A stretch of DNA of 64,000 bases from a virus: the UHGV virus genome UHGV-0038496. One strand, written 5' to 3'. A program made the position numbers and the translations under genes. Shown in pieces: positions 4,387 to 58,626 of the stretch. The first letter of the stretch is position 1. Each line of letters opens with the position of its first letter. The notes beneath the pieces were generated by a model, which saw only the letters and a list, made by a program, of their open reading frames with translations, made no database searches and had not been told where the DNA came from.

Positions 4387-6459
4387 TCAGAACGGACAAT
4401 CTTCATCCTCAGGGAACTCCTGTTGGATTACGCTTTGATCGTCCCCTCCATCATCCTCTTCTTCTCCTTCCGCGTCAACAGCTTTTGGTTGAGGTTTCAC
4501 ATCGGCGGTAACTTTACCTTCTGGAGTTTCCACAACAACATGCTCTTCATTGTCAAACATATCTTGCGGCCTCCAGACAATATCTCCATCTTTGTTCAGG
4601 AAGAAACCTGTCTCCTTATCCCACACCCAGTCGCTGGCATCGGAGAATTTACCAGTCTCAGGGTTCATAATCAGCACATCAGCTATGCCTAAGGTTTTAG
4701 CTGGCCTGTTTTTCAGGCTAACTAAACGAACACGCCCACGGGACCTGTCAGGCATCTCTTCTGCTTCTACCCCTATGACAACCCAACTGAGTTGCTCCAT
4801 CGATCCACTACCACGAAGGTTTTCTTTACGGACAGGATACCAGAACGGTAAAGCCCTGCCTTCTTTATCCTTCGGTGGGATAATCTCTGTGCGACGCAAG
4901 TGGGCAATCGCCAGGATGAACACATTAAATTGCTTACAGAACGCTGCAAGCTGTGTCATTGCAAGGTCTAACTCTTTGCGTTCATCTTTTACATTCAAAC
5001 CAGAGATAACCATCGACAGGTGATCCAGCACGATGTAACGACAATGATACAAGCACACCATCTGTTTCAGTTTTGTGATCAGGTCGTTTACAGGTATTGA
5101 ACCGAAGTGCCGGAATACCCTGATTTTGTCAGCATCAACCCAGGCTTTGTGGATATCAAAGTGCTCCTGCTCGGTTAGATACTTGCTTGGATCTTCCATG
5201 AAATTCTTGATATCGTATCCCAGCTGGTTAGCATACAGTGAGTTGATGGCTTCTTCTGGGTCTTCTTCCAGGTGAATCATACACAACCTGTCTTCTGGGT
5301 CGTAGTCATCAGCTTTAGCCACCGTAGGATCCATCAGGTATTTAGCTATCTGGTGCTCAATTTTCTTGGCTACCGTAGTCTTACCACCACCAGAAGGACC
5401 AGTCAGCATAACCAGTGTGCCTTTATGCAAACCTTTCAGCATTTTCTGTAGTTTAGGGAACTCTGCCCCAATATCAACCCCGTTGGTGGATTTTTTACGT
5501 AAATCTTCGATTGAGAAATCACTCAGGCCTGCTACAGCATCTGGCACGTATTTGATCGGGTTTTTGAACATATCGTGAATTTGATCATACTTTTTAGCCT
5601 GGAACAAATCACGGATATCTTTGTAACCCTCTGGATCATTTACTTCACTCGGATACTGCACATGGAAAACGTTGTCAGCCATCAGGAAAGCTGCAACATT
5701 GTGAGTGGCTTCAACACCTTTGGTGACATGTTTTAGCTTCTCAACATCGTTTGCAGCGTCGTTGTCGAAGGCCAGGACAATCTCATCAAAGCTACGAATG
5801 AACTTCTCGTTGTTGGCAAAAGCATCTACGGCATTCGCGCAACCACAGTTAAGCCCTACCACGTTGATTGTGGGAAAACCTTTAGCAGAACCACCATCCT
5901 GCACCGCTTTAATACCGTCAAGAACGCTTTGTGCCCACGCTTTAGCTTTTTTATTTGATGATGGATCTGTAGCTATTTTCCTCACCATCATCCATTCAGT
6001 CTGCCACGCAGCAATAACGTCGCCTTCACCTTCGCAGACAATGATTTTACGATGGTCCGAGCCTTCCCCAACCATTTTCTGACCAAAGAACTGGCTGTTG
6101 GCCTTAACAACAGAAACTACGGTAAAATGCCCCTTCTGCTCTTTTGGGATAGTCCAGTCACGTTTCTTGTAACCAGTCAGGTTGCCATACTTATCGTAAT
6201 ACGGAAAGTATGTAGCAACAATATCCACCCCGTTCTCTTCTGAAACTGCGGAACGGATCCCGAAGTATTTAGCAGCTTCTAAACCTATGTTTTGCTGCGG
6301 AACTTTCAGTATCTTTGTAGAAGCCAGAACACTTTCGACTGTTTCTTGCTCTTTCTCGTCTCTGTAATCTCTTCTCACACTCCCTCCGCTTCTCCATTTT
6401 GTTGCTTGTGGGTTAGGTTGACCAAACTTGGCATAAGCTGAACTAAAGAAATTACCCAT
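4387..6459 (-). CDS. DNA primase-helicase (T7 gp4-like; TOPRIM plus DnaB-like helicase)
   Basis: TOPRIM-like IIVCEGEGDVIAAW, Walker A MLTGPSGGGKTT, helicase motifs (VLDHLSMV, AIAHLRR); 690 aa. Confidence 0.85.
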   Translation of the reverse strand: MGNFFSSAYAKFGQPNPQATKWRSGGSVRRDYRDEKEQETVESVLASTKILKVPQQNIGLEAAKYFGIRSAVSEENGVDIVATYFPYYDKYGNLTGYKKRDWTIPKEQKGHFTVVSVVKANSQFFGQKMVGEGSDHRKIIVCEGEGDVIAAWQTEWMMVRKIATDPSSNKKAKAWAQSVLDGIKAVQDGGSAKGFPTINVVGLNCGCANAVDAFANNEKFIRSFDEIVLAFDNDAANDVEKLKHVTKGVEATHNVAAFLMADNVFHVQYPSEVNDPEGYKDIRDLFQAKKYDQIHDMFKNPIKYVPDAVAGLSDFSIEDLRKKSTNGVDIGAEFPKLQKMLKGLHKGTLVMLTGPSGGGKTTVAKKIEHQIAKYLMDPTVAKADDYDPEDRLCMIHLEEDPEEAINSLYANQLGYDIKNFMEDPSKYLTEQEHFDIHKAWVDADKIRVFRHFGSIPVNDLITKLKQMVCLYHCRYIVLDHLSMVISGLNVKDERKELDLAMTQLAAFCKQFNVFILAIAHLRRTEIIPPKDKEGRALPFWYPVRKENLRGSGSMEQLSWVVIGVEAEEMPDRSRGRVRLVSLKNRPAKTLGIADVLIMNPETGKFSDASDWVWDKETGFFLNKDGDIVWRPQDMFDNEEHVVVETPEGKVTADVKPQPKAVDAEGEEEDDGGDDQSVIQQEFPEDEDCPF

Positions 6460-8706: not shown

Positions 8707-10048
8707 GATCTTTTCTTACTTTTTCATCCAACCCAGGGAATGTATCGGCGTAAAACTGTATCACCCTTGGGTCTACGATAATATCACTTTCTCTAACAGG
8801 ACGCAAGAGGGTAATGCTCTGAATTTTCTTAGCACGGCTAAGAGCAACATAAGTCATTCCTGCCGCGAATGCACCTCTCTTACCTAAATCAAGGTTGTAA
8901 GCCTCCAGAGTAAGCCCCTGGCATTTATGGATTGTATAGGCATACCCAGATTTCAAAGGTAACTGTTCGAATGACCCTGTGGTTATTCTTTCAATCACTC
9001 TTTTCTTTTTACGGGTAGCCCAGTCAAATTTGATAGACGGTTTGTATTCGTAACTCTCCCATAACTTAGTAGGTACAGTAACAAGTGTACCATCATCCAG
9101 CTCAATGTCAACCTTATCTGTGTGAAATTCTAAAATTGTGCCACGGGATCCATTCACATAATGTGGAACTTTGTGTTTAGGATCAAGGTCGTTAGCAACA
9201 ATCATAACTTTCATGCCTACTTTCAGATACATAGTATCTTCCACTGGCAAGTGATTAGCAGGAAATCTGCCTTTCAAGACCCCCTTGTACATCTTTTCTT
9301 TGCCATTTACACGATCATAGAACTCCCTGTTTATCTCTTCCACCCTTTTGTTGGTTGAGCACAAAATAATGGCATCAGAAGGTTGACCACCATGATAGCA
9401 ACGGGAGTTTAGTTCCTTCACCACATCTTTGGTTCTGCGACCTTCTCGGACACAGTTTAACATTGTGGCAAACCTAATTGACTCCTGCCTGAATTGCTCC
9501 ACAAGGGCAACACATTTCAGGTTGAGGTCTTTCCAGGATTGTGTGTAGAAGCAAAGGTCAGTGTCCCAATATTTGTAGTAATCCTCTCTTTCTTGCATAG
9601 AGATAACAGGCTCTGCCTGGTAGAAATCCCCAAACATGATCACCTGTAAACCTCCGAAAGGTTCATTAGATTTACGAAGGTGTTGGAGTTTCTTATCCAT
9701 CTCCACAAACTTATCCGCACGAACCATAGACACTTCATCAATGACTAAGGTTCGTAGTGCTTTACTTTTGAGAGGTTTGGCTGTTTTAGAACGAATCTCT
9801 GTGAAATCTTCTGGGACAGTCACACCTGCTGACAGGTCAAAAGCCCTGTGTGCGGTAACACCGCCAGCGTTAAGTGCAGCTACCCCTGTTGGGGCAACAA
9901 CCATACAAGATTCGCCGAGTAAAGATTGTATGTCTTGCAAAAGATGAGTCTTACCAGTGCCACCTGGCCCACTGATATAGACATTTTCACCACATAACAC
10001 AGCGGCGAGAGCGGCATCCGTGCCAATCTCATAGGTTTGTTCTTCCAC
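8660..10048 (-). CDS. ATP-dependent DNA helicase, Dda/RecD/PIF1-like (SF1B)
   Basis: Walker A GPGGTGKTHLL, APTGVAA, and C-terminal AYTIHKCQGLT...ALSRA motifs typical of RecD/Dda helicases. Confidence 0.8.
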   Translation of the reverse strand: MEEQTYEIGTDAALAAVLCGENVYISGPGGTGKTHLLQDIQSLLGESCMVVAPTGVAALNAGGVTAHRAFDLSAGVTVPEDFTEIRSKTAKPLKSKALRTLVIDEVSMVRADKFVEMDKKLQHLRKSNEPFGGLQVIMFGDFYQAEPVISMQEREDYYKYWDTDLCFYTQSWKDLNLKCVALVEQFRQESIRFATMLNCVREGRRTKDVVKELNSRCYHGGQPSDAIILCSTNKRVEEINREFYDRVNGKEKMYKGVLKGRFPANHLPVEDTMYLKVGMKVMIVANDLDPKHKVPHYVNGSRGTILEFHTDKVDIELDDGTLVTVPTKLWESYEYKPSIKFDWATRKKKRVIERITTGSFEQLPLKSGYAYTIHKCQGLTLEAYNLDLGKRGAFAAGMTYVALSRAKKIQSITLLRPVRESDIIVDPRVIQFYADTFPGLDEKVRKDLEAKVKKEADNESAG

Positions 10049-10057
10049 TCTTCCTCC

Positions 10058-11341
10058 TTAGAAGAAGATCTCTTCTATTACGTTGCCATCACGGTCAACT
10101 ACATACTCATTCGGCATATCTTCCGTGCGTTTAACAGGAGCCGTGAGTATTTCGAAGCGGCAGCAACGGCATTTAGCAAAGTCGTAGTCATACGGCACAC
10201 TAACCACATCTGCTGGGTCAACAGCCACTTTAGTTAACACACCGTATCCTTTGGCATACTCAGCGCTTGCACAGTGCAGGCCGTGAGAGCAAGCCACCTT
10301 TGGGTTATCCTCTACAAAGTTACGAGGCATTGAGATAAAGCAGCCTTCGTATTGTGGGACTTTACCAGAATGGTAGTCTACACAGCTTCCGTCAGCCTTC
10401 TGAGTTACACCACGGAAACATTCTATACGACCATCAGGTAGAATGTCAATATCATTTGCCTGCATAAAGTTGTAGAGCATGTCTACAGACTTAGCAGACG
10501 GGTTACGAAGCAGACGGACCAGGAACTTGATGTAGCGTTCATCCAGAGTGCCTTCTGCCGCATCCTTTTCAATCCGTTTGGCGATAGTGGAAGTCAGGTG
10601 CACACCATAGTAGAAGAGTTCACCATCACGCATTACGAGGTGATTTTCCAGGTACACCACTTCAATACTTTCCTCTTCCTCTTTCTCCGCGTCCTTAATG
10701 AGCTGAATTGCACCATCGAAGTCGTTAGCACCAACTCTTGCAAACACTTCTTTGTAGAGTTCTTCGTTGTCCTCATCAGCTGTTACAGTGTAAGTCTCTT
10801 CACGAGTGATAATCTGGATCATGCTGCCGAAGATAACCACGACAGGTTCACCATCTGGCACTTTTGGCACCAGGTCATCAGCATTGTAAATCGCTTCATC
10901 ACTGGATGGTTCAACCTCTAAAGGTGAGGCATCACCGTAGTAAGTCGCTGCGTGTTCTGCTGGGGTGTAAACAAGGTTTTTAGGACTTGCATTTTCCCAG
11001 TGCAATACCCCTACTACATTGCCAGGGTATTTTACCACCCAACGCGGAACAGTCGCATAAGGGCCACGGTCGATGAGTGTGGAACCTTCCATGCAGTTTT
11101 CTTTGAACTTACGAGCCTCTCCACGAGAAGCAAACTCTGCATAGTAGTATTCCACTTCCAAAAATTCATTATCAATGTCGCAATTTTTCGGGGAATGTAC
11201 GTCTATCCACCATTCGCCATCGAGAAGATACGGTTTACCCACAGGAAAGCCACGGCTTTCATATTTTGCTTTTGCTACACGAGCATCGTTACGAGTTTTG
11301 TAAGTACGCACGTATACAGCTACGGTTGAACAGTCTGACAT
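10058..11341 (-). CDS. rIIB-like protein (tentative)
   Basis: 427-aa ORF immediately downstream of, and start/stop-overlapping with, the rIIA-like gene; assignment is by position only. Confidence 0.35.
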   Translation of the reverse strand: MSDCSTVAVYVRTYKTRNDARVAKAKYESRGFPVGKPYLLDGEWWIDVHSPKNCDIDNEFLEVEYYYAEFASRGEARKFKENCMEGSTLIDRGPYATVPRWVVKYPGNVVGVLHWENASPKNLVYTPAEHAATYYGDASPLEVEPSSDEAIYNADDLVPKVPDGEPVVVIFGSMIQIITREETYTVTADEDNEELYKEVFARVGANDFDGAIQLIKDAEKEEEESIEVVYLENHLVMRDGELFYYGVHLTSTIAKRIEKDAAEGTLDERYIKFLVRLLRNPSAKSVDMLYNFMQANDIDILPDGRIECFRGVTQKADGSCVDYHSGKVPQYEGCFISMPRNFVEDNPKVACSHGLHCASAEYAKGYGVLTKVAVDPADVVSVPYDYDFAKCRCCRFEILTAPVKRTEDMPNEYVVDRDGNVIEEIFF

Positions 11342-16158: not shown

Positions 16159-16433
16159 TCTCCAACCCCCAGAGCATATGCAGGAGCTTCTTCAAATGCC
16201 AGAACCAGACGATGATTGTGGCGTGGGTCCAGGAAGATTTTAGTTACCCGTAAGCACACAGTGTAACCGTCCATTGCTGCCACAACGTAGTCACCAGGAT
16301 ACGGCAGTTTATCACCAGGGTTAACGAATGCATGGCCCATAGCCAGTTCGTCATCTGTTGTGTGGTGCATTGCAAACCATACAGCATCTGCCTGTGCATC
16401 TTCACCTACGTGGAAAATCTGAGGTTTTTTCAT
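16155..16433 (-). CDS. hypothetical protein
   Basis: 92-aa ORF with overlaps. Confidence 0.45.
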   Translation of the reverse strand: MKKPQIFHVGEDAQADAVWFAMHHTTDDELAMGHAFVNPGDKLPYPGDYVVAAMDGYTVCLRVTKIFLDPRHNHRLVLAFEEAPAYALGVGE

Positions 16434-17326
16434 TAGAAGTCTCCTTCGTATTTAATCTTAGCTTCTTCATCCCACTTCAACATAGGACGAAGTAATTCTA
16501 ACTCATTACCCAGCAGGTTGTCAACCCATAATTGATCTTTTATTCCCATCGCTTCCATAACTTCAAGAGATTCAGGTGAGAATTTACCATCCTCCCCTTT
16601 GAATGACTCCAAAGTATCCGAGCTAACACGGGCATATTCCATACGGCTATCACGCTTCCGGTACTGGAACATCAGGAATTCCCCTGTTGTGTGATACTTG
16701 TTGATCAGCATAACAGGTTCCCCACCCAGAGCTGTGTATTCCCGTGACTTAATCTGCAACGGGGCGAAGTCACTTACACTCTGGTTACCAGTCATCCTGC
16801 TAGTTATTTTCCCATCGTAGCAGAAAACGTATGGCAAGTCAAGCAGGTCAATAGAAATATCTGAAGAGTAACATACACTCCTGCCGTTCAAACTATAATA
16901 AACATACACCATAAAAGGCTGCATGTCAAATGCTTTTGCAAGCATTTTGAAGAAACCTCTCTCTCCACCGATAATGCCGTTCATAAAATAAGGATGCTCT
17001 GCTATAGAGGCAAAGCCTTGTTGGAAACGGAACATGACACACCCAGCACGCTGCCACGATACAGCCTTATTGATCTCCATGCTGAAGCTACCCATAAAAT
17101 TATGGCCTGGCATATCTTCTTTAGTGAACATCCAGTGGAAATCATCAAACCCTGCACTATTGATCGTAGTGTTGATTGAGTTTGCTATTAAGTTGTAGAA
17201 CGGGTGGCAAGCTGTGAACAGTCTGCGACGATACAGGATACTCTCATACAAAGAAGAAAGTATTGTTCCCACATCTGTTGGGGCTTGACTCATAGGGTCA
17301 AATGGTGTAATATGATGCTCAAACAT
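16433..17326 (-). CDS. hypothetical protein (about 297 aa)
   Basis: Track ORF trimmed to ATG at 17324-17326 (MFEHHITPFD...) with RBS GAGAGGAA 7 nt upstream; the longer version would overlap the divergent promoter region. Confidence 0.5.
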   Translation of the reverse strand: MFEHHITPFDPMSQAPTDVGTILSSLYESILYRRRLFTACHPFYNLIANSINTTINSAGFDDFHWMFTKEDMPGHNFMGSFSMEINKAVSWQRAGCVMFRFQQGFASIAEHPYFMNGIIGGERGFFKMLAKAFDMQPFMVYVYYSLNGRSVCYSSDISIDLLDLPYVFCYDGKITSRMTGNQSVSDFAPLQIKSREYTALGGEPVMLINKYHTTGEFLMFQYRKRDSRMEYARVSSDTLESFKGEDGKFSPESLEVMEAMGIKDQLWVDNLLGNELELLRPMLKWDEEAKIKYEGDF

Positions 17327-17400
17327 GGAAAGGTTCCTCTCTTGTTCTGTTATTGGCGAAGAATAGATCAAGATGAACCAAAAGTCAACAACATTTTTAG

Positions 17401-17429
17401 TTGACAAGGGTAAAATTTCATGTTAATGT
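17401..17429 (+). promoter_or_regulatory. sigma70-like promoter (TTGACA, 17-nt spacer, TAATGT)
   Basis: -35 TTGACA at 17401-17406, -10 TAATGT at 17424-17429, about 35 nt upstream of the ATG at 17464. Confidence 0.45.
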
Positions 17430-17463
17430 TCGCCCTAAATACACACAAGCAAGGACATTTGCT

Positions 17464-18498
17464 ATGGCTAAAACAAACATTCAGTATCTGGAGGGCTGCT
17501 ATCAACCGTGGGAGTTGGAGAAGCTGAATAAAAAGTATAAACGTAAACAGGGTAATGCTAAGAAAAGGGGCATCATGTTTACGTTAACGTGGGAGGAATG
17601 GCTCTTTTTTGGGAAAAAATTATTAGGTGATGGGGTTTGTGACTACTCACTTATCCCATTCGACATGCATACAGATGAAAACGGGATAGGTAACCCGTTC
17701 TATCCTTCTCTCGAACGCATAGATTGTGAAGGTGCATACGCATTACACAATTGTTGTGTAGTGGGCACTCGTTGTAACGAGTTAAAAGACTCACTGGTTG
17801 ATCGTGCCAATGCGGTTCTCGTTAAGGATCGCCATGATCGTAAGATTGTCAAAAACATGATTCTCCATATGTCTGATGAACGAATGGAGGCCCTGAAAGA
17901 AGAATACTCTTTCGAAAACTTCATGCGCCAGTATGGCTCTGAAGAAGACAAAGCTGAACTCGGCCTGTTGGGTGGTGAAGAACTTTTGCAACAAATTGAA
18001 GCTAAGGAGGAAGAACCTATGACACCTGCACAGGAATTACGTGAGTTCATGGACAAACGTGCTGAAAAACATGTCAGGGACATTGCGAAAGAGCCTGTGG
18101 CTGAAGAAACGGCTGAAGTTGAAGAAGTACAAGCCGAAGTTGTTGAGGACCGTACAGACGCTCCTGAAGAGCCTAAACCGCTACCTCAGGCATTACCACC
18201 AGATGTGGCTGTTGCTCAGGCTTATGCTTTCTACTGCCAGGTCTTCTACGACATAGGTATGAAAGTGGATCTGACATTCGGACAGTTCAAACAAGTGTAC
18301 CAGAAAAAATGTTGTGCACTGACTGGTGAACGCCTGGGTGACGGACTTAAATCTATCCTGGTGGCTGATCGTGATAAAGGTTTTGTCAAAGGTAACTTCA
18401 TGGTAGTTACACCTGTGATGGAAAAAGCGATGACTGACCTCATGAAAACGACTAACATGACGATGGCAGAGCTTGCAAACATCTTCAAAAAGGTGTAA
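17464..18498 (+). CDS. hypothetical protein with two Cys-containing domains separated by an acidic linker
   Basis: Start moved to the ATG at 17464 (MAKTNIQYLEG...), which has an AAGGA RBS and sits downstream of the promoter; N- and C-terminal segments share a F.LT...KK..G.C pattern around an EEPVAEETAEVEEVQAEVVED linker. Confidence 0.5.
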   Translation: MAKTNIQYLEGCYQPWELEKLNKKYKRKQGNAKKRGIMFTLTWEEWLFFGKKLLGDGVCDYSLIPFDMHTDENGIGNPFYPSLERIDCEGAYALHNCCVVGTRCNELKDSLVDRANAVLVKDRHDRKIVKNMILHMSDERMEALKEEYSFENFMRQYGSEEDKAELGLLGGEELLQQIEAKEEEPMTPAQELREFMDKRAEKHVRDIAKEPVAEETAEVEEVQAEVVEDRTDAPEEPKPLPQALPPDVAVAQAYAFYCQVFYDIGMKVDLTFGQFKQVYQKKCCALTGERLGDGLKSILVADRDKGFVKGNFMVVTPVMEKAMTDLMKTTNMTMAELANIFKKV

Positions 18499-18517
18499 GA
18501 TAGTAGAAAATAACAAC

Positions 18518-18537
18518 GAGGGGGCTTTTGCCCCCTT
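18518..18537 (+). terminator. weak intrinsic terminator or attenuator
   Basis: GGGGGC-TTTT-GCCCCC hairpin followed by TTTGG; located between the 17464..18498 gene and the RBS GGAGGA of the next gene. Confidence 0.3.
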
Positions 18538-18549
18538 TGGAGGATCGTA

Positions 18550-20004
18550 GTGGACGCAAGAAGTTCAGAACTGATTTTAGCACAGAAACCAGAAGCTCTA
18601 CGTATGCTCCAGGGTGCTCGCATGTGGCTCATGGAAAGACTGAGCTTCTACGGTGTGCTCCTGTCAGGCTTACAATTTGTTGAGAACCACACATGGTGTG
18701 ACACTATTGCCACAGACCATAAGCGGATTTACTACAATCCAGAGTTCATCGTGGGTGTTTGTCAGGAACGCCGTGCTATCATTCTGCCTAAGTGCGATGA
18801 TAAAATGAAAGAACAGCTGGATGCTTTCTATGCACCTAAAACGCTTAAAGAGGTTGCTTTTCTCCTGTGTCATGAGATAGGTCACATCATTGCTGATCAC
18901 ATCAGCCGTGGTAAAGCCTTCTCTGATCACAACCTGTTTAACCAGGCTGCTGACCACGTTATTAATACGGGGCTGATGGAAGATTTAGCTGAACCGCCAT
19001 GTGCAATGTTCCCACACGGCATTCGCACACAGCTGAAAAAAGGCCAGCCGTTTGCATTCCTTGAGTATTGCTATTGTGATAAGAAATACCACGGGTGGAT
19101 AACTGAAAAAGTTTATGCAGACCTGGAAAAACAACAACAGCAGCAACAAGGTAAAGGACAAAGTGCCAGTGGTGGTGGTCTACGAGCCACAGATACTCAC
19201 ATGGGTGACGGACAAGGCCAGTCTGACAACCTCAGTGAAGCTATGGGCTACGAAAAAGGCAACCAGCCACCAATGACTCAGGCAGAGAGAGATGCAGCAA
19301 TGCAGGACTCTGGGGACATGATGGAAGCTGCTATGCAGGCGGCAGGTGGTGAAGGTCCGGCACAGGTGCGTGAGTGGATCAAAAATCGCAATAAGCCTAT
19401 TATCAACTATCTGGATGTGATTCGCCAGCGTATGTTGTCACACCGGAAAGCTGATATGACTTATCGCCGTCCGGCACGTCGCTCTGGTGCTTTAACTCAC
19501 ACATTACGTAACAAAGGGGCTATCAACAATCGCCAGTCTGTTATTCTCCCAGGTCGCAACCAGGAGAAAACGATTGACATAGTGGTTGCATTCGACGTAT
19601 CAGGCTCTATCTCTCAACGAACTCTGAAACGTATCACTTCAGAAATCGGTGGGTTGTGCAGCCTGTATAAAGAGTTCAAAGTTACAATGTTCTGTTGGTC
19701 AACAGAAGTTGGTGATGTTCAGGTATACACTCACCAGAATATTGCACAGATGCCTGACTACCAGATTAAGTCTACGTTCGGTACTCGCGCAGGCTGTGTG
19801 TTTGAATATCTGGATAAACATCTGTCTGATGTTCAGGATGTGATTATCTTTACTGACCTGTATCTTGAATCAGATTTTGAAAAAGAGGTTGACAGGAACA
19901 ACTGGGATAAGTATAATACGCTCTGGATCAGGACAGAAGGTGGTAACAAGAACTATACGCCATCTTTTGGCAGAACTATTGATTTGATTGAAAACGCTAA
20001 ATAG
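18550..20004 (+). CDS. putative zinc metallopeptidase-like plus von Willebrand factor A domain protein
   Basis: GTG start with RBS GGAGGA; HExxH motif LCHEIGHIIADH in the N-terminal half; vWA MIDAS-like VAFDVSGSIS in the C-terminal half; Q/G-rich low-complexity linker. Confidence 0.65.
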   Translation: MDARSSELILAQKPEALRMLQGARMWLMERLSFYGVLLSGLQFVENHTWCDTIATDHKRIYYNPEFIVGVCQERRAIILPKCDDKMKEQLDAFYAPKTLKEVAFLLCHEIGHIIADHISRGKAFSDHNLFNQAADHVINTGLMEDLAEPPCAMFPHGIRTQLKKGQPFAFLEYCYCDKKYHGWITEKVYADLEKQQQQQQGKGQSASGGGLRATDTHMGDGQGQSDNLSEAMGYEKGNQPPMTQAERDAAMQDSGDMMEAAMQAAGGEGPAQVREWIKNRNKPIINYLDVIRQRMLSHRKADMTYRRPARRSGALTHTLRNKGAINNRQSVILPGRNQEKTIDIVVAFDVSGSISQRTLKRITSEIGGLCSLYKEFKVTMFCWSTEVGDVQVYTHQNIAQMPDYQIKSTFGTRAGCVFEYLDKHLSDVQDVIIFTDLYLESDFEKEVDRNNWDKYNTLWIRTEGGNKNYTPSFGRTIDLIENAK

Positions 20005-20015
20005 GAGACACAGTT

Positions 20016-20267
20016 ATGGCAACATCTGTATCTTTAAGAGAGCTTGAACCTGTGGTCAAACCTCTCAGAAATTTTAAACCGGGCACGGTTGTAGAAATCC
20101 TGGTGGCAGCTGAAGCACGCAATGTGTTAATCATGGAGGATAACTCTTATGACGGTGGCATCTACACTGTAGACCTGGAAGACTTCTCTTTACAAATTAT
20201 GGACGGTGATTTATCTGCAACAGAAGTTAATGCAGAAATCGTCCTTTGCGGATACGCTCGTCATTAA
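20016..20267 (+). CDS. hypothetical protein
   Basis: 83-aa ORF following the previous gene by 11 nt. Confidence 0.45.
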   Translation: MATSVSLRELEPVVKPLRNFKPGTVVEILVAAEARNVLIMEDNSYDGGIYTVDLEDFSLQIMDGDLSATEVNAEIVLCGYARH

Positions 20268-20282
20268 CAGGGGGACCCAGCC

Positions 20283-20717
20283 ATGCTGACTAAACGCCAA
20301 TGCCAATCTTCGGGCGAAAAACAATGGAAGAAGGAGTGGTTTGGGGTAGAAGTATGCCAGCTTCGGCTGGGTACTTACCTTGACTACGTTTACTACCGTA
20401 ATAACTATGAGATTGTTCAGTACGAGGCCTTTTACACTAAACATCTGATAGAGATTAGCCGTAAGATTCAGGGGCCTGTGGGGACTAAAGAAGACTGGAA
20501 AGTCATCGTGCCGATGGATATGATCTCTGATCCGGCTCACCCAACAGATGATGAAAATATGATGGTCGAATTGATGTTAGGTCTTGACGACCTTGAAATT
20601 GCGATCTATCATATGTGTGTTGAGGCAGCTGCTGCTGACTTTGAAGAGAAGCTCGACGAGCAGGAATTACAAAGTCTTTTAACAGAAAAACTTAAAGAAT
20701 ATTTTACGGGGGATTGA
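20283..20717 (+). CDS. hypothetical protein
   Basis: 144-aa ORF. Confidence 0.45.
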   Translation: MLTKRQCQSSGEKQWKKEWFGVEVCQLRLGTYLDYVYYRNNYEIVQYEAFYTKHLIEISRKIQGPVGTKEDWKVIVPMDMISDPAHPTDDENMMVELMLGLDDLEIAIYHMCVEAAAADFEEKLDEQELQSLLTEKLKEYFTGD

Positions 20718-20718
20718 T

Positions 20719-20955
20719 ATGTTTGCTCGCAAGCCAGAAATGGATAAAGATGTGTTGGGTCACCTGATGCGTTGCCGTCTGGTATGGCAAGAAGCTCGTC
20801 AAGACCGTAAAGTCGTTGTAGTCAGTAACAGTGACGATCCATTCAAGAACTATCGTGAGATGATGGATCTGTACATCCGTCGTGGCCTTGTCAAAGTGGT
20901 TAAACTGGATGACCTGACTGAAGAAGACCTGGAAGGTACGGTGGTAGAACTATGA
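20719..20955 (+). CDS. hypothetical protein
   Basis: 78-aa ORF, 1-nt gap from the upstream gene. Confidence 0.45.
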   Translation: MFARKPEMDKDVLGHLMRCRLVWQEARQDRKVVVVSNSDDPFKNYREMMDLYIRRGLVKVVKLDDLTEEDLEGTVVEL

Positions 20956-21545
20956 GCAACGTAGAATTTTTTACTAACAATCTCCAGAGGGACCTGGATA
21001 CTTTTCTCGAATCTGAGTGGAATGACTACTGGGATAATTATTTTGCCAGTTCTCGCTTCAATGCCTTCAAGATGATATTCGAAAAGTATATCTTCCCAGT
21101 ACCACGGTACTACAGGGAAGAAACTTACACTACTAAGTGTAAAGTGATGATAAGGGCTTTGAAGAACAATGATCATCCCAGTGTAAGTGATCTTCGCAAC
21201 ATGGTCCACGATGTTGATGGTGAAATGCACGTCAGAATCTGGAGAAAACGCGAGAAGCACAAGAAAGAGCTACTACAGTTCGGAGTTGACCTCCTGACTA
21301 ACCGTAATGCTTGTGGCAATAACGGTGGCCCTTGCGTGATGGAAAAACGTGCACCAAAACTGTTGGATCGCTTACTGCGGGATCCGATGGGGATGGATAT
21401 GCTGCGTTTGAGCCTGTTCAAATACATCAAAAAGTGTGTGGATGGTGAGGGATGGGCAATGTCTGCCAAACACTACGGTGAGGATGATGACCCAAACGAA
21501 GGTATCAACCTTCTGCTTCAATTGTTGGAGGGTAATGATGAGTGA
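20952..21545 (+). CDS. hypothetical protein
   Basis: 197-aa ORF with ATGA overlap with the upstream gene. Confidence 0.45.
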   Translation: MSNVEFFTNNLQRDLDTFLESEWNDYWDNYFASSRFNAFKMIFEKYIFPVPRYYREETYTTKCKVMIRALKNNDHPSVSDLRNMVHDVDGEMHVRIWRKREKHKKELLQFGVDLLTNRNACGNNGGPCVMEKRAPKLLDRLLRDPMGMDMLRLSLFKYIKKCVDGEGWAMSAKHYGEDDDPNEGINLLLQLLEGNDE

Positions 21546-21981
21546 TCCATACAGCAAAGAGCAACTGAAAGCAGACTTCGGTAAAATCTTGATGGAAGAT
21601 GCTGACTGGTACTTCCACAAACAAGGTTGGTACGCCAAGTCAACAGCCGCGACAGGTAGTGTCGGTGTCAACATCGTGTGGAAGCTGATGGAAAACTTTG
21701 ATCAGACAGGGAACATTATCGCCCATATTAGTGAGAATCAGGTCCACATGAGCCGTGTGAGAATCCTGGAAGGCTTGCTGGAGTCTGGGGATAACAACAT
21801 CCAACACGCTAAAGCAGCTTTACAGGATGCCTACACAGAGATAATTATAGCGACCTTAAACCAACGCAGACGCTACGAGAAGGCTTTTATCCACCACTCG
21901 GCAGAGTATTTACTGTATGGCAGGATGGATGGTTATGGTCCACTTCTGGCGCTAAGAGATAAAAACTGCACCAGAGAATGA
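21538..21981 (+). CDS. hypothetical protein
   Basis: Track ORF 21436..21981 trimmed to ATG at 21538 (MSDPYSKEQ...) preceded by GGAGGG; the longer form would overlap about 100 nt of the upstream gene. Confidence 0.45.
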   Translation: MSDPYSKEQLKADFGKILMEDADWYFHKQGWYAKSTAATGSVGVNIVWKLMENFDQTGNIIAHISENQVHMSRVRILEGLLESGDNNIQHAKAALQDAYTEIIIATLNQRRRYEKAFIHHSAEYLLYGRMDGYGPLLALRDKNCTRE

Positions 21982-22148
21982 TGGAATCACCTTGTGGGCC
22001 AGGGGTTGTGGAATTGGTGCTGGCAGAATTTATCAGGCCGTACGTGGAAGAACAACCTCTTCACACAATGCCACCTGGACAATACGGTAAAGGTGAGTAT
22101 ATCAACGAACCAAGTAAACTGATTGATCTGATTTTGCAGTTTGACTAA
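21978..22148 (+). CDS. hypothetical small protein (56 aa)
   Basis: ORF below the track cutoff, read by hand (MMESPCGPGV...LILQFD); ATG overlaps the upstream stop. Confidence 0.3.
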   Translation: MMESPCGPGVVELVLAEFIRPYVEEQPLHTMPPGQYGKGEYINEPSKLIDLILQFD

Positions 22149-22168
22149 AAAAAGAAAGTAAAAATCCC

Positions 22169-22197
22169 TTGACATGGAATGATGGTTGTGTTAAGAT
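22169..22197 (+). promoter_or_regulatory. sigma70-like promoter (TTGACA, 17-nt spacer, TAAGAT)
   Basis: -35 TTGACA 22169-22174, -10 TAAGAT 22192-22197; the track ORF 22179..22403 starts inside this promoter, so its true start is taken as 22251. Confidence 0.5.
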
Positions 22198-22250
22198 GCT
22201 TCCATCAAATGAAGAGAAGCACAGTTCAACAGATAAATAAGGAGTCAGCC

Positions 22251-22403
22251 ATGAAATACAATATCGACAATTTAGCTTGTTTCAAAGAAGATTTTGCAGA
22301 TTCTATGGATCAGGCTTGTCCGGGTGAAATTCCTGTACAAGGTGCAGACAAAGATGAAGTAAAAGAGTTCTGCATTGATAATCTTGGCGCATTCGATAAA
22401 TAG
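22251..22403 (+). CDS. hypothetical small protein (50 aa)
   Basis: ATG at 22251 (MKYNIDNLACF...) with a strong RBS AAGGAG 7 nt upstream, downstream of the promoter. Confidence 0.5.
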   Translation: MKYNIDNLACFKEDFADSMDQACPGEIPVQGADKDEVKEFCIDNLGAFDK

Positions 22404-22414
22404 GGGGGTGGGTT

Positions 22415-22558
22415 ATGAAAATAAGACTCGAAGTTTTAGCACTGGTTGCAATGGGTTTGATAGTTCTGGGTGTTCATGCTATGGATGTTGATTGGGGCGC
22501 AGTAGCTGAGAGCATGGCTCAGGCACATCCGATGGGCCTGATGCAAATGAACTTCTAA
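22415..22558 (+). CDS. hypothetical small hydrophobic protein (47 aa)
   Basis: Hand-read ORF MKIRLEVLALVAMGLIVLGVHA... with G-rich RBS; followed directly by a terminator. Confidence 0.35.
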   Translation: MKIRLEVLALVAMGLIVLGVHAMDVDWGAVAESMAQAHPMGLMQMNF

Positions 22559-22566
22559 CTGTATAG

Positions 22567-22592
22567 GCCCCGCTTCGGCGGGGCTTATTTTT
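22567..22592 (+). terminator. rho-independent terminator
   Basis: GCCCCGC-TTCG-GCGGGGC hairpin followed by TTATTTTTGTCTTTT. Confidence 0.7.
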
Positions 22593-22629
22593 GTCTTTTC
22601 CACACAACTGATTGAGTGAAAGAAAACTG

Positions 22630-22658
22630 TTGACATGCCCCGTGCGTTGTGGTATAAA
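22630..22658 (+). promoter_or_regulatory. sigma70-like promoter (TTGACA, 17-nt spacer, TATAAA)
   Basis: -35 TTGACA 22630-22635, -10 TATAAA 22653-22658, upstream of the ATG at 22690. Confidence 0.55.
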
Positions 22659-22689
22659 TACTCCATCAACAGAACGAAGGACCACTACG

Positions 22690-22965
22690 ATGACTAAAGA
22701 ACAGTTACGCTACCTTGAATACGGCCTGTCGATGGTGCAGGAAGGTCTGTCTGCTGCATACCGCATGAATATGCAAGCCAAAGCTAACGATGCCCGTATC
22801 AACCAGATCCTGGATATGGACTTTGCCGAGTTCACAGTTCATGCCAAAGAGATCCCACAGCTGATAAAAGAAAATGAAGAACTGGATCGCAAGATTCATT
22901 GCATCATTGAAGCTGCGGAAAACACACATGCTTTTGCATACAAATTTTTGAAAAATAAGGAGTAG
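22690..22965 (+). CDS. hypothetical protein (91 aa)
   Basis: Start moved to ATG at 22690 (MTKEQLRYLEYG...) with RBS GAAGGA, downstream of the promoter. Confidence 0.5.
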   Translation: MTKEQLRYLEYGLSMVQEGLSAAYRMNMQAKANDARINQILDMDFAEFTVHAKEIPQLIKENEELDRKIHCIIEAAENTHAFAYKFLKNKE

Positions 22966-22968
22966 GCT

Positions 22969-23460
22969 ATGGATTCTGGCTACGATGACGGTAGTGGGGA
23001 TATTTTTGATTACAGCAGTTTAACCACTTCTCTGCCGTTTGAAACACGTAATGGCACGAAGATTGCTGCATTTGACTTCGATAATACGTTCAATGCAGAG
23101 CCTTTCATCTTCGCCTCATTTGTTGGCGCGTTGCAGAAGGCTGGTTGGTATTGCTGCTTTGTCACATTCCGGTTCCCTGAACAGGACAGCTGTGACATTC
23201 GAATGTGGGCTGAAAAGCTGGGTATGGATATCTTCTACACTTCTGGTGTACAGAAAGCAGCTTACATGGCTACGATGGGCATCTTCCCAGATATCTGGGT
23301 TGATGATAACCCAGCAGGTATCCCAGCTAAAAACCAACTGGAGTTCGCCAGGGATGAAGTGATGTATAAACGTAAAGCTAAACAGAATAACTGGCCTCTT
23401 GTTATAGAGGACTACCCAGAACCTGAAGCTGAACCAGAGGAGTACTTACATGAAAAATAA
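22969..23460 (+). CDS. putative HAD-superfamily phosphatase / nucleotidase-like protein
   Basis: Motif I-like AAFDFDNTF (DxDxT) near the N-terminus; 163 aa. Confidence 0.4.
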   Translation: MDSGYDDGSGDIFDYSSLTTSLPFETRNGTKIAAFDFDNTFNAEPFIFASFVGALQKAGWYCCFVTFRFPEQDSCDIRMWAEKLGMDIFYTSGVQKAAYMATMGIFPDIWVDDNPAGIPAKNQLEFARDEVMYKRKAKQNNWPLVIEDYPEPEAEPEEYLHEK

Positions 23461-23635
23461 AATCAGACAACTCTACCACTTCGTGATGTGGAGAGGTTTA
23501 CGTGCATGGGCTAAAGCTCATCGTCGCTTCTTCGGTTACGGTGATGCTTATATCCATCTACATCTGGCTGCTATTCAGCACCACGATGAATACATCGAAG
23601 CAATCGTTCTTGGGGACAGAGACTTCTTACATTGA
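23450..23635 (+). CDS. hypothetical protein
   Basis: 61-aa ORF overlapping the upstream gene end. Confidence 0.35.
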   Translation: MKNKIRQLYHFVMWRGLRAWAKAHRRFFGYGDAYIHLHLAAIQHHDEYIEAIVLGDRDFLH

Positions 23636-23646
23636 TAAAAATTTTG

Positions 23647-23674
23647 TTGACAGGGACGTTAAATTGTGTATAAT
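23647..23674 (+). promoter_or_regulatory. sigma70-like promoter (TTGACA, 16-nt spacer, TATAAT)
   Basis: -35 TTGACA 23647-23652; consensus -10 TATAAT 23669-23674 preceded by TG; about 35 nt upstream of the RBS GAGGAG and the ATG at 23708. Confidence 0.6.
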
Positions 23675-23707
23675 ACACCACATCAAAGAGAGATGAGGAG
23701 TGCAGAA

Positions 23708-23893
23708 ATGAGTAAACGTTATCCTTCAGACAATCCTTATGTTATCGCACTTGGTGCACTGTGTGTTATGCTTGTACTTGTTGCAGTGATTGTGGCAGAC
23801 TATCTGGACATTCAGCAGCAGATCGAGTGCATGAAGCTGTTAAAAGCTAAAGTTGCAGCATTCCAGGCAGATATTTTCAACATTACACACTGA
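23708..23893 (+). CDS. small membrane protein (one predicted transmembrane helix)
   Basis: MSKRYPSDNPYVIALGALCVMLVLVAVIVADYL...; hydrophobic helix; RBS GAGGAG. Confidence 0.5.
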   Translation: MSKRYPSDNPYVIALGALCVMLVLVAVIVADYLDIQQQIECMKLLKAKVAAFQADIFNITH

Positions 23894-23901
23894 GGCCGGA
23901 T

Positions 23902-24042
23902 ATGGACTTGTATTTCATGGTAGACTTAGCTCTGCAAGGTTTTCTTCCAGGTGTCTTCCTGGATGCTCCACCACTCTGGTTGGCCTTCTGGTTGATGATT
24001 GTGGTAGTGATTAACGGTATTCTGGATGCATGTAAAAAGTGA
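23902..24042 (+). CDS. small membrane protein (46 aa)
   Basis: Hand-read ORF MDLYFMVDLALQGFLPGVFLDAPPLWLAFWLMIVVVINGILDACKK; RBS GAGG. Confidence 0.4.
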   Translation: MDLYFMVDLALQGFLPGVFLDAPPLWLAFWLMIVVVINGILDACKK

Positions 24043-24051
24043 GGTGCCAAA

Positions 24052-24249
24052 ATGTCTCTGTATGATATTATTATGTTTATCTTTTGGTTAATTTTTATTG
24101 TTCTGCAAGCTGTAGCGGGTGTACGAGTAGCGGAAATGAAAGGCTACGAGAAGTGGTGGCAGAAACTGCTGGCATTCTTGTTTGCTCCGTACGCAATCAT
24201 CATGATTGTTTTGTTCCTAAAAGATAAAAAACATCCTTCTGAAGAATAA
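24052..24249 (+). CDS. small membrane protein (two predicted transmembrane helices)
   Basis: MSLYDIIMFIFWLIFIVLQAVAGV...LLAFLFAPYAIIMIVLFL...; RBS GAGGTG. Confidence 0.5.
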   Translation: MSLYDIIMFIFWLIFIVLQAVAGVRVAEMKGYEKWWQKLLAFLFAPYAIIMIVLFLKDKKHPSEE

Positions 24250-24282
24250 TCCTTCCTCTTAATCATCTCCTCAAACAAAAAA

Positions 24283-24301
24283 GGGGGCCATCAAGGCCCC
24301 C
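24283..24301. terminator. bidirectional rho-independent terminator at the convergence of plus-strand early genes and the minus-strand structural cluster
   Basis: Hairpin GGGGGCC-ATCAA-GGCCCCC flanked by an A-run on the plus strand (a U-run for the minus-strand transcript) and by AAATTGTTT on the plus side. Confidence 0.7.
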
Positions 24302-57008: not shown

Positions 57009-57026
57009 AAGCCTCCGAAGAGGCTT
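57009..57026 (-). terminator. rho-independent terminator overlapping the nuclease stop codon
   Basis: AAGCCTC-CGAA-GAGGCTT hairpin followed on the minus strand by TTTCTGTTTG. Confidence 0.55.
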
Positions 57027-58563
57027 ATAACCACTTAGCTCTCCATACCCATTTAATCTTACCACTATCCCACAACCGGATAGCCCCAACCAAATCTTCT
57101 ATCTCCCGCTCTGTACGAGGATCAATAGACTTATCTGGGTTGAAGTCTACATCAGATCTGCCAATCTCCTCCAGACGTTTAGGAATCAATCGACGTTGCC
57201 AGTGTGGTTTCGGACGCAAACCATTAGCAGGGTGGAATACTCTGTAGTCAGGTTTGCCATACGTTTCAGCAACAAATCCCAACACTTCATAAACCCCACC
57301 AGCGAAGTAGTCATTCATACTGAATGAACTAACCTCTTCTGGATTATTCTCCCTGATAAACGTTTTAAACAGTCTAGATGCCCCACCACGAACAGAACAG
57401 CTTGATGCAAATCTTGATAACTCCCATGTTGCCTTAGTCGTACCGTTAGCTCTGGCCTGACCTCTCGTAGTTTTACCGTAGCCGAAGCTCATGATTGCTA
57501 CAATTTCACCTTCTTTCGTTTTCAGAGCCAGATTGATAGGGTTAGGAGAATGGCCCTGCGGGTGGTAAGCGTCGTAAAACTCTTTGCACTCTATTGATTT
57601 TAGATGCACAACTTCACACTCCCTGGCATTTACTTTACGCTCACCATTACACCCCAAAGCATGAGCCAGCAACTGGCTGAACACTTTCTGGTTGTTATCC
57701 CAATCATAGTCCGTGATCTGGATCAGGCGAATACCTTTCTCTTTACAGGCTAACCACTTGTTGTAATGGTAGTCTTTAGACTTATGATTATCACCATGCC
57801 AGAAGACACCGTTAACTTCAATCGCCACACGTTTTGATGGGACAAAGATATCTAACTCTTTGCCATCATCCAAGATAGTGCGGTTAGACTGCTCCGCGTC
57901 TGGACAGATAGATTTTACAAAGTCAAAGACAGATCCTTCCACTTTAGAAGTCAATTTTGCACAATGCCTGCACCCATGACCTCTGTGAATGTGTTCTTTC
58001 ACAGGCTGTTGGAACTCTGATCCACATTTTGTGCATTCAATATTGAGAATGCCTTTCTTCCTTTCATCATAAAACATACTTTTGTAAACGTATTTATCTT
58101 TGTGGACCTCTTTAGCTTGTTCCACAACTTCTTCAAAAGAGTTTCTGCTTTTTCTACCACGAGTCATGTTAGCACAACGAGGGCAGCCCTGTCCTCTCAA
58201 ATGTTTGCTAGGTTTTTGTGAGAACACGCCGTGGTCAGGGCAAATAATGTTCACATTTGTCACTCTATCTTTATACACAACCTCAGAGTAATCGTAACGA
58301 TCACCATGTTTTTCTTTGGCCTTTTCGATAAATTCTTCCCTGTTTCCACGTTTACGCTCAAGGTAACATTCTTTGCACCCCTCCCCTTTTCTGTGAGCAT
58401 TCGCTTCTACCGAAAACACGCCATGTTTTTTGCAAATAATGTTAACTTTTTCTCTGCTACCTTTGTACTCAGTTTGACTGTAATCATACATTTCTTCAAA
58501 CTCAGGGTTTTCTTTGAAGACGGCTGTTAGCCATTCTTCTTTTGTATAACCTTTTCCAGCCAT
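57025..58563 (-). CDS. putative homing-type endonuclease: three tandem zinc-ribbon-like repeats plus Vsr-like PD-(D/E)xK nuclease domain
   Basis: Three roughly 45-aa repeats (Y.YS...Y......NIICP.HGVF......H..G.GC..C); nuclease-like block DIFVPSKRVAIEVNGVFWHGDNH resembling the FVDGCFWHGH core of Vsr (from memory); start set at ATG 58561-58563 (MAGKGYTKEEW...) with RBS AGGAG. Confidence 0.65.
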   Translation of the reverse strand: MAGKGYTKEEWLTAVFKENPEFEEMYDYSQTEYKGSREKVNIICKKHGVFSVEANAHRKGEGCKECYLERKRGNREEFIEKAKEKHGDRYDYSEVVYKDRVTNVNIICPDHGVFSQKPSKHLRGQGCPRCANMTRGRKSRNSFEEVVEQAKEVHKDKYVYKSMFYDERKKGILNIECTKCGSEFQQPVKEHIHRGHGCRHCAKLTSKVEGSVFDFVKSICPDAEQSNRTILDDGKELDIFVPSKRVAIEVNGVFWHGDNHKSKDYHYNKWLACKEKGIRLIQITDYDWDNNQKVFSQLLAHALGCNGERKVNARECEVVHLKSIECKEFYDAYHPQGHSPNPINLALKTKEGEIVAIMSFGYGKTTRGQARANGTTKATWELSRFASSCSVRGGASRLFKTFIRENNPEEVSSFSMNDYFAGGVYEVLGFVAETYGKPDYRVFHPANGLRPKPHWQRRLIPKRLEEIGRSDVDFNPDKSIDPRTEREIEDLVGAIRLWDSGKIKWVWRAKWL

Positions 58564-58596
58564 CGAAAAACTCCTAGTAGTTTTAAACACAGGGGA

Positions 58597-58626
58597 ACTA
58601 TACCACAAAACATTAGCTTTTGTCAA
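58597..58626 (-). promoter_or_regulatory. sigma70-like promoter with extended -10 (TTGACA, 18-nt spacer, TGG-TATAGT)
   Basis: Read on the minus strand: TTGACA (rc of 58621-58626), 18 nt, GTGGTATAGT (TATAGT = rc of 58597-58602); about 30 nt upstream of the nuclease RBS. Confidence 0.55.

Follow-up and report, generated by a model that had tools for sequence, protein, structure and literature searches.

The viral genome UHGV-0038496 was analysed over a stretch of 64,000 nucleotides (the window), and the locus of interest occupies positions 22,169 to 23,674 of its plus strand. Here a predicted sigma-70-type promoter (P1) is followed by two short genes, for proteins of 50 and 47 amino acids (aa), and by an intrinsic terminator (T1); beyond it lie two further promoters, P2 and P3, ahead of genes for proteins of 91 and 61 aa. 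A 56-aa open reading frame (ORF) stands immediately upstream of P1, and another promoter, P0, stands far upstream at 17401 (Table 1). From its sequence, the window is best described as a divergent rV5-like (Vequintavirinae-like) myovirus genome. No match was obtained when the region was searched for near-identity in 50,697 phage records, and a distant DNA search matched Vequintavirus (rV5-like) genomes only, at 66-70% identity over parts of the query. The 484-aa VWA/metallopeptidase protein encoded at 18550..20004 shares 62% aa identity with its rV5-family counterpart, and the gene order of the plus strand from 17400 to 24300 is that of the ‘genes 11-26’ transcription unit of rV5, as compared with phage nomo (L001) and the rV5 reference record (L012, NC_011041). 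The window is identical, at 12,144 of 12,144 nt, to the MEGAHIT-style metagenome contig k141_617802 (140,706 bp; ENA ERZ27287477). Its close relatives are four sister genomes from IMG/VR (L002 to L005), at ~89% nucleotide identity and all from metagenome 3300045988.

The strict promoter pattern TTGACA-N16-18-TAnnn[TA] occurs five times on the plus strand of positions 17300-24300, where 0.34 occurrences are expected. None of 2000 dinucleotide shuffles of this segment reached five copies, and its minus strand holds no match to the pattern. A looser tool scan showed no promoter enrichment (20 found, 16.3 expected) and missed P2, because it demands a T at the last position of the -10 hexamer. Across five genomes, all 21 orthologous copies have the same -35 hexamer, with spacers that differ at several positions, and the -10 hexamer is invariant at P1, P2, P3 and the internal promoter at 19889. 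This stronger conservation of hexamers than of spacers is the pattern that functional promoters show, and is consistent with all five elements being promoters. P0 has a variable spacer in the five genomes and is equivalent to the annotated P11 of rV5; P1, with its -10 hexamer at 22192-22197 and an A-rich upstream flank, retains both hexamers unchanged in L002 and L003; P2 is conserved in five genomes, with a 1-nt insertion in the spacer of L003, at a position that matches rV5 P20. The rV5 record and paper annotate P11 in a divergent promoter region and P20 as an internal promoter, with coding sequences starting downstream of them (PMC3606486).

Some further observations concern the promoters themselves. 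The one at 19889 lies within the last ~40 codons of the 484-aa VWA/metallopeptidase gene, where its hexamers are invariant despite being coding sequence. The -10 region of P2 (22650-22660, plus strand) has the sequence TGGTATAAATA, without change across the five genomes; within it is the T4 late-promoter consensus TATAAATA, and it is similar to the ‘late’ motif of rV5, TggTAaAAtA. An assignment of P2 as a T4-late-type promoter was rejected, as the only other copy of TATAAATA in the window is at 14884 (plus strand) and none lies upstream of the minus-strand structural genes. The motif CCATCAA, which stands just after the -10 hexamer of both P1 and P2, was dropped as a specific element, there being 20 plus-strand copies of it in the window.

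The ORF track on which the first-pass annotation was based extends each frame to the first ATG, GTG or TTG after a stop codon, and its long ORFs arise because that codon happens to fall in or before a promoter. The annotation had proposed that several of these ORFs start inside promoters, which is correct for ATG 22179 (the ATGATG at 22179-22184 is inside the P1 spacer), for GTG 23666 (the final 3 nt of the P3 spacer) and for track ORF 17401..18498, whose TTG ‘start’ is the first three bases of the P0 -35 hexamer; TTG 22612, in turn, lies 18 nt upstream of the P2 -35 hexamer and so upstream of the promoter, not inside it. The internal starts that it had put forward instead (22251, 22690, 23708 and 17464) are borne out throughout, with every coordinate and motif present and with agreement between Shine-Dalgarno (SD) sequences, relatives, homologue lengths and gene calls. 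SD strength, taken as the anti-SD pairing energy, is best at the internal ATG in every ORF: -5.1 kcal/mol at 17464, -8.8 at 22251, -5.4 at 22690 and -8.9 at 23708. The upstream codons range from +1.5 to -3.3 kcal/mol (TTG 17401, -0.4), with the exception of GTG 23666. A gene caller applied to the identical ENA contig gives products of 344, 147, 56, 50, 47, 91 and 61 aa at exactly these starts.

In close relatives, the upstream extensions have lost their start, are frameshifted or are interrupted by stops. Both spacer codons, ATG 22179 and ATG 22182, are replaced in L002 and L003 although the P1 hexamers around them are unchanged, and the leader of L003 has in addition gained 7 nt by insertion and carries a TAG, in frame, 12 nt ahead of the start of the 50-aa gene. 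TTG 22612 reads TTT in the same two genomes, neither of which has an upstream in-frame start for the 91-aa gene; residues 1-90 of the 91-aa protein align with positions 1-90 of 91 in PHROG 12604, and rV5 gp020 and nomo_10 are also 91 aa. For the 61-aa gene, L002 has no upstream in-frame start, all cluster members are 61 aa, and the relatives begin M[SN]K[RS]Y, each with a GGAG-type SD, behind four different promoter and 5′ untranslated contexts. The 344-aa protein matches PHROG 3118 from residue 15 onwards, and its gene differs between relatives by about 23-32/14-21/94-108 substitutions (counts are given throughout for codon positions 1/2/3); homologues begin at the methionine equivalent to 17464, and no plus-strand gene lies upstream to supply a read-through transcript. 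Track ORF 21436 is likewise over-extended, its SD-led start being 21538.

As the gene caller already gives the shorter starts on an identical contig, the upstream extensions are attributable to the track: the over-long ORFs are an artefact, or limitation, of a mechanical procedure and not a peculiarity of the phage or new biology. The TTG of a TTGACA hexamer is taken as a start codon twice in the window, the second case being track ORF 57025..58626 (minus strand), which ‘starts’ at the TTG of a TTGACA-18-TATAGT promoter (58597-58626) and has its SD-led ATG at 58563. Across from P0, the TTG start of track ORF 16433..17407 (minus strand) overlaps the P0 -35 hexamer on the opposite strand; the gene call for this divergent gene is 297 aa, that is, a start at 17326 and not at 17407. 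Deposited annotations of the Srd-like family disagree in a similar manner, with nomo_19 (L001:362) starting at an ATG immediately before the -35 hexamer and rV5 gp011 (L012:788) starting at a TTG located 42 nt past the SD-proximal ATG, which in an alignment corresponds to 17464 of the window. The practical value of these observations is that ‘first start after stop’ tracks over-extend genes behind strong promoters.

The first-pass annotation had pointed to AAGGAG before the internal ATG at 22251; the site is present, and this ATG also defines a real gene of 50 codons. Among 28 homologue clusters listed or fetched, 19 are 50 aa long and 24 of the 28 start or are sized as MKY..., almost all beginning MKY[DN]IDN. 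The central segment is rich in indels, always in frame, including one of 30 nt. For this ORF the nucleotide-level evidence is the weaker (one relative, 7/6/12 substitutions) and the protein-level evidence, with its 28 clusters, is strong. The product is predicted to be an acidic cytoplasmic protein with three conserved cysteines. The neighbouring 47-aa hydrophobic ORF, which had been described as closed by a clean terminator, stands as described on the strength of its SD, homologues, substitutions and the fold of T1. Its SD, at -12.3 kcal/mol, is the strongest of the region, substitutions number 6/2/14 and 8/4/13, and all 17 homologue clusters are exactly 47 aa. Homologues of 45 aa are annotated as mEp515_97 in mEp515 and, by PGAP, as WP_170994008.1 in E. 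coli RM9245. The protein opens with a basic n-region, MKIR, followed by LEVLALVAMGLIVLGVHA with a 16-residue hydrophobic core, a VHA motif and a Met/His-rich tail of 25 residues, which suggests a small exported or membrane-anchored peptide. The tail (22481-22558) reads MDVDWGAVAESMAQAHPMGLMQMNF (...NMAHAHPMSLMHINY in the mEp515 homologue), and its richness in these residues may resemble that of periplasmic Cu(I)-binding Met/His motifs.

T1 has a folding energy of -20.7 kcal/mol (z = -4.2), and in L002 as well as L003 its G-C pair 22567/22584 is replaced by A-T. A GC-rich stem-loop followed by a U-tract, with the stem kept by compensatory change, is what is found at intrinsic terminators, and we predict that T1 acts as one. 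With SD-led starts, in-frame purifying selection and conserved homologue lengths, the 50-aa and 47-aa ORFs are, as far as sequence can tell, real genes; none of the small proteins of the region has a Pfam match above cut-off. The relatives point to the same boundaries. L002 carries a deletion running exactly from the ATGAAA at 22251 to the ATGAAA at 22415, which places the 47-aa gene directly behind AAGGAG, and because this deletion is so precise both ATGs can be taken as gene boundaries. In L004 and L005 all of 22178-22630 is missing and there is a single promoter, in which the P1 upstream flank is joined to the P2 spacer and -10 hexamer with the junction in TTGACATG. The cassette is thus absent from these two genomes and partial in L002, and because of this variable presence we regard the unit from P1 to T1 as an accessory cassette.

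The ORF upstream of P1 is of a different nature. The first-pass annotation had listed 21978..22148 as a 56-aa mini-gene; the ORF exists, but it is the displaced C-terminus of a conserved 201-aa protein of the gp019 family, the gene for which has suffered a -1 frameshift in this genome only. In L002, L003 and L005 the 56-aa sequence is continuous with the upstream ORF (...LALRDAKLHRRMMESPYGPG...LILQFD-stop), and in the window the homology in its frame extends past its ATG in the upstream direction (KLHQR), up to the frameshift site. It belongs to a 223-member cluster at 90% identity, in which 12 of the 15 members listed are 201-202 aa, and it matches positions 140-188 of the 188 in PHROG 12232; the rV5 homologue (gp019/nomo_11) has 188 aa and ends ...VVDLLLQFE. 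The 147-aa N-terminal fragment is a singleton protein cluster that aligns to the 201-aa relatives. The anti-SD pairing finds no SD before the 56-aa ORF, and the third-position bias of its substitutions (3/2/13) reflects its past as part of the larger gene.

Two alternatives bear on this frameshift. The first, to which we give a minor share of the probability, is that the change at 21961 is an assembly or sequencing artefact and that the real phage encodes an intact 201-aa protein. The identity of the window to a MEGAHIT-style metagenome contig is in keeping with this, as is the presence in L004 (~5250-5270) of its own, different frameshift in a G-run of the same gene (JGI product P0020, 85 aa); the two breaks together imply either that the gene is dispensable or that the metagenome assemblies contain indel errors. 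ENA, Logan and NCBI list the same protein fragments, which argues for a genuine change, though all three copies may derive from one sample. The change itself is complex (GCT to AA) and not a simple error of homopolymer length. A simple homopolymer slip as its origin was rejected, since the A6 intermediate GATAAAAAACT was not found in IMG/VR, where a search for it returned one match, an unrelated chance one; the window's own variant is absent from IMG/VR as well.

The second alternative is improbable: that the 56-aa ORF is expressed, either by termination-reinitiation at ATGA, giving a two-subunit protein, or by a -1 slip at U-AAA-AAC (21960-21966), giving a full-length product that reads ...LALRD-KN-LHQRMMES.... 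Its ATG at 21978 does overlap the upstream TGA, a -1 slip on AAA-AAC would put ribosomes back precisely into the ancestral frame, this C-terminal part has a history of purifying selection, and the frameshift is present in the NCBI, ENA and Logan copies. Against it stand the missing SD and the fact that ATGATG is merely an internal Met-Met of the ancestral protein. Programmed -1 frameshifting was rejected for the slip site, where the heptamer is not a canonical X-XXY-YYZ, no downstream structure is found (z = +0.91, with an equally good or better fold in 166 of 200 shuffles) and the site occurs in this genome only. An arrangement unique to one genome, with a singleton 147-aa fragment where the listed relatives mostly have 201-202 aa, cannot have been selected for.

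Table 1. Predicted features of the plus-strand unit, in order of position in the window.
Feature	Position	Strand	Basis and details
Promoter P0	17401..17429	+	TTGACA, 17 nt, TGtTAATGT (extended -10); 6/6 + 3/6 with TGn
344-aa Srd-like/HNH-family gene (rV5 gp011 homologue)	17464..18498	+	SD AAGGA 17451-17455, gene call, PHROG
Internal promoter	19889..19917	+	12/12 consensus; hexamers invariant in 5 genomes; ahead of gene 20016..20267
N-terminal fragment, 147 aa, rV5-gp019 family	21538..21981	+	SD -9.8 kcal/mol at 21538, gene call
Frameshift site	21961..21962	+	‘gat AA aaactg’; relatives ‘gat GCT aaactc’; net -1 nt
56-aa ORF	21978..22148	+	C-terminal 56 residues of 201-aa protein, -1 frame
Promoter P1	22169..22197	+	TTGACA 22169-22174, 17 nt, TGtTAAGAT; 6/6 + 4/6 with TGn
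50-aa acidic, 3-Cys protein gene	22251..22403	+	SD AAGGAG 22239-22244, 6 nt before ATG
47-aa gene	22415..22558	+	SD, substitutions, homologue lengths
Intrinsic terminator T1	22563..22598	+	11-bp stem, UUCG loop, U-tract UUAUUUUUGUCUUUU; 4 nt after 47-aa ORF
Promoter P2	22630..22658	+	TTGACA 22630-22635, 17 nt, TGgTATAAA 22650-22658; 6/6 + 5/6 with TGn
91-aa gene (rV5 gp020 homologue)	22690..22965	+	SD GAAGGA 22676-22681, PHROG 12604
Promoter P3	23647..23674	+	TTGACA 23647, 16 nt, TATAAT 23669-23674; 12/12 match
61-aa single-pass membrane-type protein gene	23708..23893	+	SD GAGGAG 23696-23701
46-aa hydrophobic mini-gene, absent from the first-pass annotation	23902..24042	+	conserved in 4 relatives, substitutions 8/4/17, gene call
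65-aa membrane-type protein gene, last of the plus-strand unit	24052..24249	+	gene call
Bidirectional terminator	24283..24301	.	between the plus-strand unit and the converging 1943-aa tail-fibre-like gene

Behind P3, the operon at 23708-24249 (plus strand) encodes three consecutive small hydrophobic proteins of 61, 46 and 65 aa, for which 1, 1 and 2 membrane spans, respectively, are predicted by eye. They belong to no PHROG or Pfam family and have no counterpart in rV5. The terminator at 24283-24301 corresponds to the bidirectional terminators annotated after rV5 gp026. With the genes of 50, 47 and 46 aa, the correct gene set of the region contains three real genes below 60 aa, in addition to one broken gene.

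P3 appears to be a second hot spot for cassettes. At the positions equivalent to ~23626-23707 and ~24250 of the window, three sister genomes carry different insertions of 2-2.7 kb that consist of promoter-led genes (L003:6660-9420; L004:6725-8765; L005:6660-9100 and 9690-10915), and the insertion of L004 is bounded by two promoters, P3 and a second one. These insertions encode YadA-anchor trimeric-autotransporter-like coiled-coil proteins of 257 and 448 aa (PF03895, E = 1e-16 to 1e-18), as well as lipobox proteins (MNFKKAVAAMIVGLS.GLCGC), a DUF5384 protein and small membrane proteins.

On the minus strand of the window, intergenic consensus promoters at 7286, 8363 and 15202 each have a GC-rich hairpin ~10-25 nt downstream, namely CCCTGCCC-gaaa-GGGCGGGG with a T-run, GGGGAGC-aggt-GCTCCCC and GGGGTG...CACCCC. 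These pairs could be composites of promoter and stem-loop similar to the promoter-early stem-loop (PeSL) elements discussed below, or hairpins that stabilise 5′ ends.

Taken together, these results suggest the following course of expression. Host sigma-70 RNA polymerase would initiate at P0 (17401), at 19889, at P1 (22169), at P2 (22630) and at P3 (23647), and each transcript would begin a few bases after the -10 box, so that the first translatable start would be the SD-led ATG 40-65 nt downstream, at 17464, 22251, 22690 and 23708. P1 would head a self-contained unit of promoter, 47-nt leader, 50-aa gene, 47-aa gene and intrinsic terminator; T1 would end the P1 transcript and insulate P2 from upstream transcription, and the whole unit would end at the bidirectional terminator. 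We hold it to be highly probable that the region is a promoter-led unit of SD-led short genes, in which the P1 cassette is accessory and the 56-aa ORF is the frameshifted C-terminus of a gp019 protein. The promoter type is what suggests that this expression may be early.

A number of observations weigh against this account or loosen parts of it. As to early timing, the rV5 authors report such promoters spread over the whole genome, including before structural genes (PMC3606486), and in the window similar promoters also precede minus-strand genes. No usable transcriptomes, transcription start sites or initiation data of rV5-like phages came out of a literature search. The substitution counts cannot be treated as independent, because the four close relatives share one metagenome and common ancestry, and for the Srd-like gene the relatives cannot discriminate between 17401 and 17464, because the upstream TTG is part of the invariant -35 hexamer. 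A weak SD-like match (-5.2 kcal/mol) precedes GTG 23666, and a further in-frame codon, ATG 23693, is common to the window and L005 only. Finally, between 17401 and 22563 no plus-strand terminator was found except a weak match at 20983, and transcripts reading through from upstream promoters would contain the start codons at 22179 and 23666.

The last of these points is the basis of a further alternative, in which the long forms are real isoforms made from read-through transcripts as N-terminally extended proteins of 74, 117, 75 and 365 aa. ATG 22179 and GTG 23666 would indeed be on some mRNAs, the latter with its SD-like match; a single relative of the 50-aa protein is called by JGI from an ATG further upstream (P0062, 64 aa), and GenBank nomo_19 is annotated from the ATG before the -35 hexamer. 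The remaining upstream codons have no SD, however, and TTG 22612 lies just after T1, while TTG 17401 has no plus-strand gene upstream of it. The upstream codons are moreover lost, frameshifted or behind in-frame stops in close relatives, and the N-termini of homologues coincide with the internal ATGs. We consider such isoforms very improbable. Scarcely credible is the notion that the unit from P1 to T1 (about 22204-22598) is a non-coding RNA with fortuitous 50- and 47-aa ORFs, for although it is short (roughly 390 nt from promoter to terminator) and its ORFs have no Pfam family, it shows third-position substitution bias, in-frame indels, a strong SD at both ATGs, a deletion in L002 from start codon to start codon and protein homologues of conserved length in unrelated temperate phages and prophages (51-64% aa identity), and an Rfam search at E ≤ 1 gave sub-threshold chance matches only (best E = 0.16, far below the gathering cut-off), hence no support for a known small RNA or riboswitch.

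The finding itself amounts to a corrected annotation of the sort that standard gene calling provides in any case, and the cassette and the split gene add fresh examples to categories already described. The nearest counterpart of the cassette is found among temperate phages. Morons, in the concept of Juhala and Hendrix, are promoter-gene-terminator units inserted between conserved genes of temperate phages. The P1 unit, with a promoter and terminator of its own, presence or absence among relatives and homology to unrelated phages, can be classed as a putative moron-type cassette. Temperate coliphages of the mEp021 group and E. coli prophages (RM9245) contain homologues of the two small proteins, in unchanged order and with a terminator behind them, at about 76-81% DNA identity. 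These homologues lie in an island of small genes on the opposite strand between tail genes L and M (mEp515_97 to _101, PP180003), which is a classical moron position. The homology to prophage DNA begins exactly at ATG 22251 (81% over 73 nt), which in the prophage gene is an internal Met codon (...EKVEG-MKYDIDN...), and it is found again across the 47-aa gene and the core of the terminator, CCCCGC-TTCG-GCGGGG (76% over 188 nt, RM9245 prophage).

The cassette thus resembles the moron island of the mEp021-group phages and prophages in gene order, terminator core and presence or absence among close relatives. It differs in that it resides in a genome of the virulent, rV5-like type, lacks the 82-aa KilAC-like gene that lies between the two genes in prophages, retains only the C-terminal half of the 116-aa prophage protein, from an internal Met, and has a promoter and leader without counterpart in prophages. 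It would therefore seem to be composed of a non-prophage promoter and leader joined to a coding part and terminator common to temperate-phage morons, and transfer may have run in either direction. As a by-product of modest evolutionary interest, a virulent rV5-like phage carries a two-gene-plus-terminator module that it has in common with the morons of temperate coliphages.

As a whole, the unit is most similar to that of genes 11-26 in rV5 (NC_011041; Kropinski et al., 2013; PMC3606486). The order of genes is the same, with Srd-like gp011 and VWA/metallopeptidase gp012 followed by gp019, gp020 (91 aa), gp021 and gp022, and so is the layout of signals, with a divergent promoter region before gp011, a promoter before gp020 and, where the unit ends, bidirectional terminators. 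By contrast, aa identity stands at only some 62%, the gp019 gene that is split in the window is unbroken in rV5, and rV5 has neither the P1 cassette (50- and 47-aa genes, T1) nor the three small membrane-protein genes behind P3.

A second likeness is to the PeSL cassettes of T4-type phages (Arbiol et al., 2010, PMC2839356; Comeau et al., 2014, PMC4122927). As in those cassettes, strong sigma-70 consensus promoters with AT-rich upstream flanks precede small genes without assigned function in a plastic region, and a terminator stem-loop has a promoter close by (T1 and P2, at a distance of 42 nt). Where close relatives differ by indels, the junctions also fall in promoter cores, as in the hybrid promoter of L004 and L005, joined at TTGACATG, and in the L004 insertion at P3, and the region provides a concrete example of such indels. 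Unlike the PeSL cassettes, the host genome is rV5-like and not T4-type, and T1 and P2 form the only pair of promoter and stem-loop in the region, whereas a composite motif in many copies is a PeSL trait. We do not count the region among the PeSL cassettes; its indels, bounded by promoters, are similar to the shuffling that PeSL elements mediate. By this analogy, and with somewhat less than an even chance of being correct, the early-type promoters and the T1/P2 pair may serve as recombination joints at which cassettes are swapped, between gp019 and gp020 and at P3, with this genome having captured a temperate moron part and its sisters YadA-anchor, lipoprotein and DUF5384 genes. If so, a virulent phage would have captured part of a temperate moron island, the 50- and 47-aa genes with their terminator, through joints of the kind that PeSL cassettes exemplify in T4-type phages.

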